Below, piece after piece: positions 8,312-8,605 of a stretch of DNA of 50,378 nt (the stretch's first letter is position 1; every line of letters starts with the position of its first letter). Made by a program: the position numbers and the translations under genes. Origin of the DNA: a virus (Duplodnaviria; Heunggongvirae; Uroviricota; Caudoviricetes); the IMG/VR virus record IMGVR_UViG_2562617057_000009, positions 1-50,378 of that record, one strand, 5' to 3'. Below the pieces are notes generated by a model. That model was not told the origin of the DNA. It searched no databases and was given only the letters and a program-made list of their open reading frames with translations.

Positions 8312-8605
8312 TTAGCGTTCGCTGAGAAGTTGTTGGTAAGCCTTAAAGGATGCGAACTGCATTCTACCTTTGGCATTGAGTCCAATGCCTTCGCTTGTAC
8401 ACCAGGTGATGAACTCGGTTGTATCCGCTTCAACTTTAATAACTCGTTGCCCGCTTCTTTCGACACGCTTAATCAATTTTTCAGCGTCGTGTTTCCACTC
8501 GGTGTAACTGTCGGAGAGCACATCTGCATCAGTAAAAATCTTTTTGAACTCATGATACTGAATAGCATCGCGAAACCAGAATAAACCAACGGCCTGAACT
8601 TTCAT
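8312..8605 (-). CDS. hypothetical protein encoded antisense to the rightward early operon
   Basis: 97-aa ORF with perfect AAGGAGG upstream of its ATG; protein-like composition. Confidence 0.5.
   Translation of the reverse strand: MKVQAVGLFWFRDAIQYHEFKKIFTDADVLSDSYTEWKHDAEKLIKRVERSGQRVIKVEADTTEFITWCTSEGIGLNAKGRMQFASFKAYQQLLSER

Follow-up and report, generated by a model that had tools for sequence, protein, structure and literature searches.

The minus-strand open reading frame (ORF) at positions 8312-8605 in a lambda-like prophage of E. coli was found to be a genuine gene, and the 97-amino-acid (97-aa) protein encoded by it was found to be under strong purifying selection. The DNA was analysed as one stretch of 50,378 nucleotides (nt), here called the window, from IMG/VR record IMGVR_UViG_2562617057_000009, and all positions given below and in Table 1 are those of the window. 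The gene lies antisense within the rightward early operon read from PR, between the cro-like gene and a Rha-family gene (rha). The surrounding segment is considered, with fair confidence, to be a leftward-reading, self-contained accessory cassette (moron) that was recombined into the operon between cro and rha.

The minus-strand ORF, its length of 97 aa and its AAGGAGG Shine-Dalgarno sequence were found as described in an earlier note on this DNA, and the antisense placement within the operon running from cro to the replication genes, also claimed there, was borne out and was found to recur in many prophages. The ORF is annotated by PGAP as WP_000867908.1, a hypothetical protein (100% identical on an E. 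coli chromosome), and was found to match phrog_4753 over its full length, with residues 1-97 on profile positions 1-97 of 97 (E=1e-48). The homologues with 72-93% identity from E. coli, Salmonella, Klebsiella, Serratia and Pectobacterium were all found to contain about 97 residues. When the Klebsiella, Pectobacterium and Salmonella copies were compared with it, 16-18, 7-8 and 43-53 differences were found at the first, second and third codon position of the minus frame, respectively. The ratio of nonsynonymous to synonymous substitution (dN/dS; Nei-Gojobori, 21 pairs) was 0.03-0.36 in the minus frame, with the synonymous sites near saturation. The GC skew was found to be negative over 8300-8599, as it was over the minus-strand cI gene.

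The plus-strand ORF that overlaps the gene could be taken as a real gene of the PR operon with the minus-strand ORF as its shadow, and this reading is effectively refuted. It was found to be open in many lineages, with a start signal after the preceding gene and a stop overlapping the next ATG, and it was the choice of the annotators of phage EKP1 and of one gene caller. The codons of the two ORFs coincide exactly, position 1 facing position 3, and 43-53 of the 68-78 differences were found to fall on the first codon position of the plus frame; its dN/dS over the same 21 pairs was 0.64-1.33, far from the values of the minus frame. No PHROG or Pfam match was found for the plus ORF, and its relatives were confined to just four database clusters, each from this locus type, with no independent homologues. 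It was found to be rich in Cys, Ser and Gly, as expected for the antisense of a gene rich in Lys, Glu and Ala, followed by a C-terminal extension that was frame-shifted between lineages and without codon periodicity. The minus-strand protein, on the other side, was found to have more than 1,100 relatives, many of them where no such plus ORF exists, and to fold with a predicted local distance difference test (pLDDT) score of 96. The comparison of homologues of both candidate proteins, as had been proposed, thus favours the minus ORF; the doubt expressed earlier about the plus ORF as a protein was justified, and conservation of the plus-strand protein, which would have spoken for the other strand, was not found.

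The closest phage record, PhiR49_2 (96.6% identity), was found to match both flanks of the cassette but not the cassette itself. PhiR49_2 was found to contain the order cI-Cro-Roi with about 17 bp in place of the cassette, cro and roi sharing 4 nt. In the other carriers of the cassette the cro genes were found to be unrelated, and the homology starts in the last ~7 codons of cro and at the opposite end reaches the first codons of the next gene. In Klebsiella and Salmonella prophages the cassette is followed by a gene whose product has the N-terminus MNPADFIRKH; what is left of this N-terminus in the window is the peptide 'EFIRKE' (8693-8712), encoded just upstream of rha, so that the mosaic joint lies inside a gene start. 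This presence/absence polymorphism fits the suggestion of the earlier note that the gene is an accessory one. The region 8100-8800 was found to be 100% identical to E. coli chromosomes such as FDAARGOS_943 and that of an O121 strain, and at least 80% of it was carried by 75 of the 5,426 complete E. coli genomes. The exact 97-aa sequence was found on 259 contigs, and at least 999 contigs were found to carry a close variant.

The position of the gene was found to be conserved along with its sequence. A family gene in the same antisense position was found in 34 IMG/VR loci, and in loci of Klebsiella, Salmonella, Pectobacterium and Phytobacter it was found to run against the rightward early operon, with the cro region on one side and the replication genes on the other. 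The same position was occupied by relatives of 51% (Salmonella, locus L048), 44% (L049), 43% (L063) and 36% identity (phage EKP1). The family gene of these PR-embedded loci was found to be oriented like the repressor gene, followed by variable downstream neighbours, namely Rha, a CII (CP76) regulator, a protein without known function, an O-like HTH_36 protein, or Ash/Rha. The CII (CP76) regulator (PF06892, E=2e-11) was the next gene after the cassette in the Phytobacter and Pectobacterium types. A scan of species-representative genomes returned one locus, only two distant tblastn matches were found among 50,697 phage records, and three of four single-protein viral scans were without any match. 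One relative was found to follow an S24 repressor gene immediately and in the same direction, and so in the repressor operon, and another family member adjoins int-xis. In the record of EKP1 (L058, OM284015.1, 'Elizabethkingia phage EKP1', 3001-3396) the annotators had called the ORF in the operon direction ('hypothetical protein 21') instead. The early region of EKP1 was seen to be of the enterobacterial lambdoid type (Toprim primase, DUF4222 and helix-turn-helix (HTH) genes) despite the stated host.

Two RNA elements flanking the gene were found to be structurally conserved. The G-rich hairpin at the 3' side was found to have a minimum free energy (MFE) of -19.9 kcal/mol on the minus strand (z=-3.9) as against -14.2 kcal/mol on the plus strand. 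Across 11 distinct sequences 95.5% of the cells were paired and two compensatory pairs were present. Many of its pairs were found to be G.U, which are C.A mismatches on the plus strand, and an analogous hairpin, GGGGAG/CUCCCC, was found in EKP1.

At the 5' side, the leader was predicted to form a stem in which the upstream arm UUGGUGCCGAACC(A)UCCUU pairs with AAGGAGGUUCGACAUGAA. The MFE was -22.4 kcal/mol (z=-3.9) in the window and -32.3 kcal/mol (z=-4.0) in the Klebsiella type (L042), with a range of -22.4 to -35.9 kcal/mol across the cassettes, and a consensus leader stem was returned by RNAalifold. In a hand-built alignment of the arms 85% of the cells were found to pair and four pairs were found to change on both sides, notably in L063, where the arms differ yet stay complementary; the observed values were reached by 14-40 of 500 shuffles, which is moderate support. 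Pair 1-24 is a G.U that is compatible with the minus strand alone. The sequence GGAGGTTCG at the Shine-Dalgarno was found to be kept even in homologues with 36-43% protein identity, and the leader motif TTGGTGCCGAACC, unique in the window, was found unchanged between cassettes with just 36% identity in their proteins. The earlier note had called the gene strongly signalled, and this holds for the AAGGAGG at 6 bases from the ATG; the ribosome-binding site was found to lie within this conserved, predicted sequestering stem, so that 'strongly signalled' is not the same as 'freely translated'.

The GGUUC beside the AUG (8606-8626 on the minus strand and the homologous leaders) was seen to be able to pair with the distant CCGAACC arm or, alternatively, with a proximal GAACC 5-6 nt 5' of the ribosome-binding site, which leaves the site in a small loop; a compensatory GACCC/GGGUU version of the proximal pairing was seen in L049. 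These pairings suggest two alternative leader structures. The Rfam covariance models gave no match at E<=5 in 7800-9000. The plus-strand GGTTCG...GCACCA had been considered as a tRNA-like 3' end and was dropped, with no match among the Rfam models (tRNA models included) and no cloverleaf evident.

Two candidate sigma-70 promoters, P1 and P2, were found upstream of the gene, with their position weight matrix (PWM) scores in Table 1. In 8 of 11 scanned lineages the match at the position of P1 was the best or one of the best; the distant L049 was found to have an analogue at this position, and L047 and L048 were without P1. P2 was found to overlap the start of rha, and the Klebsiella and Salmonella types were found to have TAAAAT or TAAAGT at the corresponding site. 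P1 lies inside the stem-loop of the leader, whereas P2 lies upstream of it.

In the cassette reading, which for promoter use, interference and gating we infer from sequence, one of these sigma-70-type promoters would transcribe the 97-aa gene when PR is repressed, that is, in a lysogen, and the leftward RNA would end at the 3' hairpin or be stabilised by it. The leader stem would gate translation, in that a transcript with its start within the stem-loop could be translated, whereas a longer one would be silent; the transcript from P1 would be without the 5' sequestering arm, and that from P2 would include the complete leader stem. Once the prophage is induced, PR transcription from the opposite direction would cross the promoter and shut the 97-aa gene off. 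The open, ribosome-accessible frame kept on the rightward strand over the cassette is interpreted as a means of keeping the PR transcripts translated through the insert. Given its leftward direction beside cro, the gene is likely to be active while PR is silent, probably in lysogens, and to be turned off after induction by PR transcription running against it. On the plus strand, the weak terminator-like site just past the plus ORF, whose T-run was found in the E. coli type of the cassette only, could serve, like tR1, as a point of pausing or termination ahead of rha.

Several findings weigh against this reading. The prediction of promoters around 8606-8718, which the earlier note had proposed, gave the weak, at best positionally conserved, consensus-level candidates P1 and P2, and a stricter consensus scan of the region gave nothing; scores of 7-9 bits arise by chance 1.4-2.8 times per kb. 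The U-run of the 3' hairpin lies 8-10 nt away and does not adjoin the stem, so that the hairpin may not terminate, and a very stable stem over the ribosome-binding site could silence the gene under most conditions. The GC content of the cassette (0.42-0.45) was found not to be distinctive from that of the flanks (0.39-0.49). No defence-system hidden Markov model of PADLOC-DB 2.0 matched the 97-aa protein at E<=1. In the Klebsiella phage Kp4865-4 (OK490419.1, L059, 2901-3215) a 34%-identical relative was found antisense in the leftward operon, convergent with a repressor-like gene and with a longer C-terminus that runs through the position of the hairpin; the rule that the family gene is always oriented like cI was ruled out by this phage. 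Relatives were also found as stand-alone chromosomal genes. Because of this orientation and these chromosomal relatives, the family is not tied to lysogeny. Two independent nonsense alleles, E36* and W37*, were found in near-identical cassettes (IMG/VR loci L019 and L040; gene at 4001-4294), and the 97-aa gene is therefore dispensable, which is also what is expected of an accessory gene.

The change behind E36* (GAG to TAG) was noted to be silent in the plus-strand frame. Between the allele of the window and the common E. coli alleles (L025, L033, L046 and others) 5-7 amino-acid and 2-4 synonymous changes were observed, the amino-acid changes being F20L, K22N, S51G, T63A, T67A, L76I and K79E. 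The ratio of nonsynonymous to synonymous polymorphism (pN/pS) was about 0.5-0.9, from counts too few to call diversifying selection.

An alternative is that the cassette acts chiefly through RNA or the act of transcription, the protein being of lesser importance; leftward transcription would then damp the lytic operon or aid repressor synthesis by converging on PR and running antisense onward through cro toward cI, in the manner of lambda PRE/anti-cro or of 186 pE. The site is the one where lambda PRE transcripts run, with the CII (CP76) gene next to it in the Phytobacter and Pectobacterium types, and a 3' hairpin without an adjacent U-tract makes read-through into anti-cro possible. The identity of TTGGTGCCGAACC at 36% protein identity points in the same direction, and STnc6030 is a precedent for an antisense RNA that works as an exclusion factor (PMC7067206). 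Against such a reading stand the strong purifying selection that has acted on the protein over deep divergence and the occurrence of the protein family in settings that are not antisense. No lambda-type TTGC-N6-TTGC CII site was seen in the leader when read by eye, and the cassette was found both with and without cII-type neighbours, the window having rha. An action mainly through RNA is accordingly held to be unlikely.

The plus frame over the cassette was found to be open beyond what the gene itself covers. In five lineages taken as independent (the L041/43/44 group, the L042/45/07/12 group, L048, L049 and L063) no stop was found in it over the whole gene, nor over the adjoining 60-240 nt on the side before the gene and 75-87 nt on the side after it, whereas the remaining two plus-strand frames were found to contain stops within the same stretches. 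In every lineage an ATG or GTG with a GAGG/AAGG-type ribosome-binding site was found soon after the upstream gene, followed by a frame end that overlaps or abuts the start of the next gene, with ATGA or 8-nt overlaps with three unrelated downstream genes. A stop in the coincident antisense frame requires a TTA, CTA or TCA codon in the real gene. These three codons made up 4 of the 89 Leu and Ser codons in embedded genes (nine lineages) as against 13 of 68 in non-embedded ones (five relatives; Fisher p=0.004), and against a background of 20.4% in the flanking ORFs the depletion in the embedded genes had a binomial p=2e-5; the lineages are few and partly related, and both the 'independent' lineages and the controls were chosen by the analyst. 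In the window, L047 and EKP1 the plus frame was found to stop inside the gene. In the window an ATG at 8231 overlaps the stop of cro as ATGA, and the frame ends at a TAA that is the complement of the Leu8 TTA codon of the 97-aa gene, followed by 140 nt that are left untranslated before rha.

From this pattern it is probable that the plus frame was selected for being uninterrupted and translatable on PR transcripts and not for a protein. As a complement to the cassette reading, the plus frame may be a translated 'bridge' ORF of irrelevant amino-acid sequence, on which ribosomes would follow RNA polymerase over the antisense insert and Rho-dependent polarity or a loss of translational coupling would be avoided; this is regarded as a serious possibility, somewhat short of being the expected one. 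A dN/dS of about 1 is what is predicted for an ORF indifferent to its sequence, and the frame that is open in five lineages with its start and stop junctions, the closure of the other plus frames and the depletion of TTA, CTA and TCA are all in its favour. The coincident antisense frame is, on the other hand, the classic site of long shadow ORFs, a well-expressed gene may avoid rare codons, which could add to the depletion, and the frame is interrupted in the window and the two other loci named above; the small number and the choice of lineages and controls also limit the comparison. Still more tentatively, a backward insertion into a packed operon may have been accommodated in such a way that the operon strand was kept as a bridge frame by purging TTA, CTA and TCA and by keeping the start and stop junctions, while the accessory gene was held under a sequestering stem.

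That both strands encode functional proteins, as a true antisense overlapping gene pair, is considered very improbable. The conserved open frame with its translation signals would fit such a pair, and the 20 N-terminal codons of the plus ORF, which lie outside the overlap, were found to look similar across lineages (MSEKITIKYDGATISIAPITL vs ..KITVTVDGAIIMIAPVTL); in the Klebsiella/Salmonella group five of the seven variable sites in the N-terminal part were third-position synonymous. The similar N-terminus (..DGA.I.IAP.T) was rejected as protein conservation, since its G...P motif comes from translating the GGGG/CCCC arms of the 3' hairpin, in which compensatory changes were found. The periodicity of the N-terminal part was weak (14/11/17), and the dN/dS of about 1 in the overlap, the lack of homologues elsewhere and the variable, frame-shifted C-terminus are also not as expected of a second protein.

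The protein of the minus-strand gene was found to belong to a large family, with 1,125 clusters (50% identity) at E<=1e-3 in a profile search of 1.84 billion representatives. Most members were found to contain about 100 residues and a few to contain two or three tandem copies. Among the relatives, P0021, P0026 and P0039 were seen to carry two or three tandem domain copies joined by coiled-coil-like linkers, and the C-terminal tail of P0100 looks, by eye, like the C-terminal motif of ribosomal L7/L12. No Pfam family was found for the 97-aa protein or for any of 100 members, the fused or longer relatives being uninformative, and no HTH family was present among their Pfam matches. An NCBIfam scan of the 97-aa protein returned nothing informative. 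All the database names of the family were 'hypothetical', and no mention was found in a literature search by the accession numbers and the PHROG id. The neighbourhoods of distant relatives (a fimbrial/PDDEXK island, an AbiEi neighbour, an aldo-keto reductase) gave no functional lead.

The AlphaFold model was obtained with the above pLDDT of 96 and a predicted template modelling score (pTM) of 0.85 from an alignment of 100 sequences, whereas with only 15 close homologues it was poor (pLDDT 62.6). The predicted fold is a soluble single domain of the order beta-alpha-alpha-beta-alpha-alpha, beginning with a beta strand and containing four helices, and the residues W10, D26, W37, G52, W68, C69 and R81 were found to be near-invariant. 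The only clear structural neighbour of the model was SO3848 (PDB 2OX6), at 8-13% identity. A sequence-profile search of the PDB returned noise only, with no solved sequence-level relative, and a fold search of BFVD returned two matches, both uncharacterised phage proteins. SO3848 of Shewanella oneidensis is an uncharacterised Aca2/YdiL-like protein that contains an HTH followed by an extended beta-alpha C-terminal domain (PMC8434428). The fold of the 97-aa protein probably resembles the non-HTH part of SO3848, a C-terminal dimerisation domain by its topology. SO3848, Aca2 and YdiL contain an N-terminal HTH, whereas the 97-aa protein is without one, and Aca2 and YdiL themselves were absent from the structural matches. 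No DNA-binding, membrane or enzymatic signature was found in the 97-aa protein. It is a guess, and the weakest step of the cassette reading, that the 97-aa protein may be a protein-binding module that benefits the lysogen, by exclusion or defence or by modulating a host or phage protein.

Table 1. Features of the window at and around the 97-aa gene.
Feature	Position	Strand	Details
97-aa protein gene	8312-8605	minus	ATG 8605-8603, TAA 8314-8312
Shine-Dalgarno AAGGAGG	8618-8612	minus	6 bases 5' of the ATG of the 97-aa gene
5' leader stem (predicted)	8601-8673	minus	sequesters the ribosome-binding site and AUG
Candidate sigma-70 promoter P1	8673-8645	minus	TTGGTG (8673-8668), 17-nt spacer, TATCCT (8650-8645); PWM 8.6
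Candidate promoter P2	8729-8702	minus	TTCACT (8729-8724), 16-nt spacer, TAAATT (8707-8702); PWM 8.8
G-rich 3' hairpin	8305-8281	minus	7 nt past the stop of the 97-aa gene; terminator-like
Putative mosaic cassette, ~480 bp	~8230-8713		boundaries within a few bases; gap in the two-piece megablast match to PhiR49_2
Plus-strand ORF	8231-8584; 8252-8584	plus	117 aa from ATG 8231; 110 aa from conserved ATG 8252; antisense to the 97-aa gene
Weak terminator-like site	8609-8634	plus	5-bp stem GAACC/GGTTC, then TTTTGTTTAT; just past the plus ORF stop
CI-type repressor (HTH and peptidase S24)	7145-7840	minus	same orientation as the 97-aa gene
cro-like gene	7968-8234	plus	first gene of the rightward early operon; PF15943 YdaS, E=1e-12
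Rha-family gene	GTG 8725-9432	plus	rightward operon resumes; PF09669, E=5e-10; PGAP start

Among the neighbouring genes, the CI-type repressor was found to match Peptidase_S24 (E=4e-17) and HTH_3 of Pfam and the transcriptional repressor phrog_4 (E=5e-54), and is an XRE family regulator in the PGAP annotation. The cro-like gene, which is divergent from the repressor and convergent with the 97-aa gene, was also found to contain a weak P22_Cro match and a match to phrog_35. The Rha-family gene is followed by a Bro-N/ANT gene. Further downstream (10322-12290) three tandem units with a spacing of 656 bp were observed, whose identity to the first is 100%, 89% and 66%, and which yield three consecutive ash/Rha-like ORFs (10306-10965, 10962-11621 and 11618-12478) whose N- and C-termini are almost the same. 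In FDAARGOS_943 this flank, 100% identical in sequence, has a different annotation, namely one 'ash family' gene followed by a truncated Rha gene and parts of IS66.

Morons such as gp15 of HK97 and bor/lom of lambda are small extra units of phage genomes. The concept was reviewed in 'The moron comes of age' (PMC3594210). Like a moron, the cassette is a small extra unit between operon genes that some genomes carry and a close relative lacks at the same joint; it has its own promoter-like and hairpin signals and plays no part in the module around it. It differs from morons in being set against the early regulatory operon beside cro and not in the late region, in having the GC content of its flanks (a deviating GC content is frequent in morons and not obligatory), and in having its ribosome-binding site in a conserved predicted stem. 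STMMW_20121 of ST64B and STnc6030 of BTP1 are antisense to lytic genes and independently transcribed in lysogens, and antisense placement was called characteristic of accessory loci (Owen et al. 2020, PMC7067206). These loci are antisense to lytic genes as the cassette is, whereas the transcription of the cassette is only predicted, no sequence relationship between them was found, and STnc6030 is non-coding. Since antisense, independently transcribed accessory loci of prophages have already been described, the cassette would be another member of that class.

The lambda PRE/anti-cro transcript, the oop RNA and pE of phage 186 are CII-dependent RNAs, and no protein is encoded by them in this interval. 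With its predicted leftward transcription from just beyond cro, in some lineages next to a cII-type gene, and converging on PR, the cassette would resemble these RNAs; it differs from them in the conserved protein, the ordinary -35/-10-like hexamers and the absence of a cII neighbour in the window. Long ORFs in the codon-coincident antisense frame are familiar as shadow ORFs in enterobacteria. The plus frame of the cassette differs from these in that it is also open outside the gene on both sides, contains start signals and abuts its neighbours, and the codons that generate stops were found to be depleted only in the relatives that are embedded antisense in an operon.

For annotation, these results are a warning that the wrong strand is called at this locus by some pipelines and authors. 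The gene encodes a common and wholly uncharacterised protein without a Pfam entry, whose one structural neighbour is itself without known function, and its recurrent site is in the first few hundred bases after cro, among the most sensitive spots of a temperate phage. By its placement, the 97-aa protein is a good candidate for a factor that benefits the lysogen or modulates the switch, a role that would span prophages of E. coli (including O121/O111 Shiga toxin-producing backgrounds), Salmonella, Shigella and Klebsiella. The two conserved RNA elements and the geometry of converging promoters bear on interference between transcripts and on the gating of translation. What is seen on the opposite strand would, if the bridge reading is true, be a concrete case of how operons tolerate antisense insertions, with selection for translation itself laid over a protein gene.

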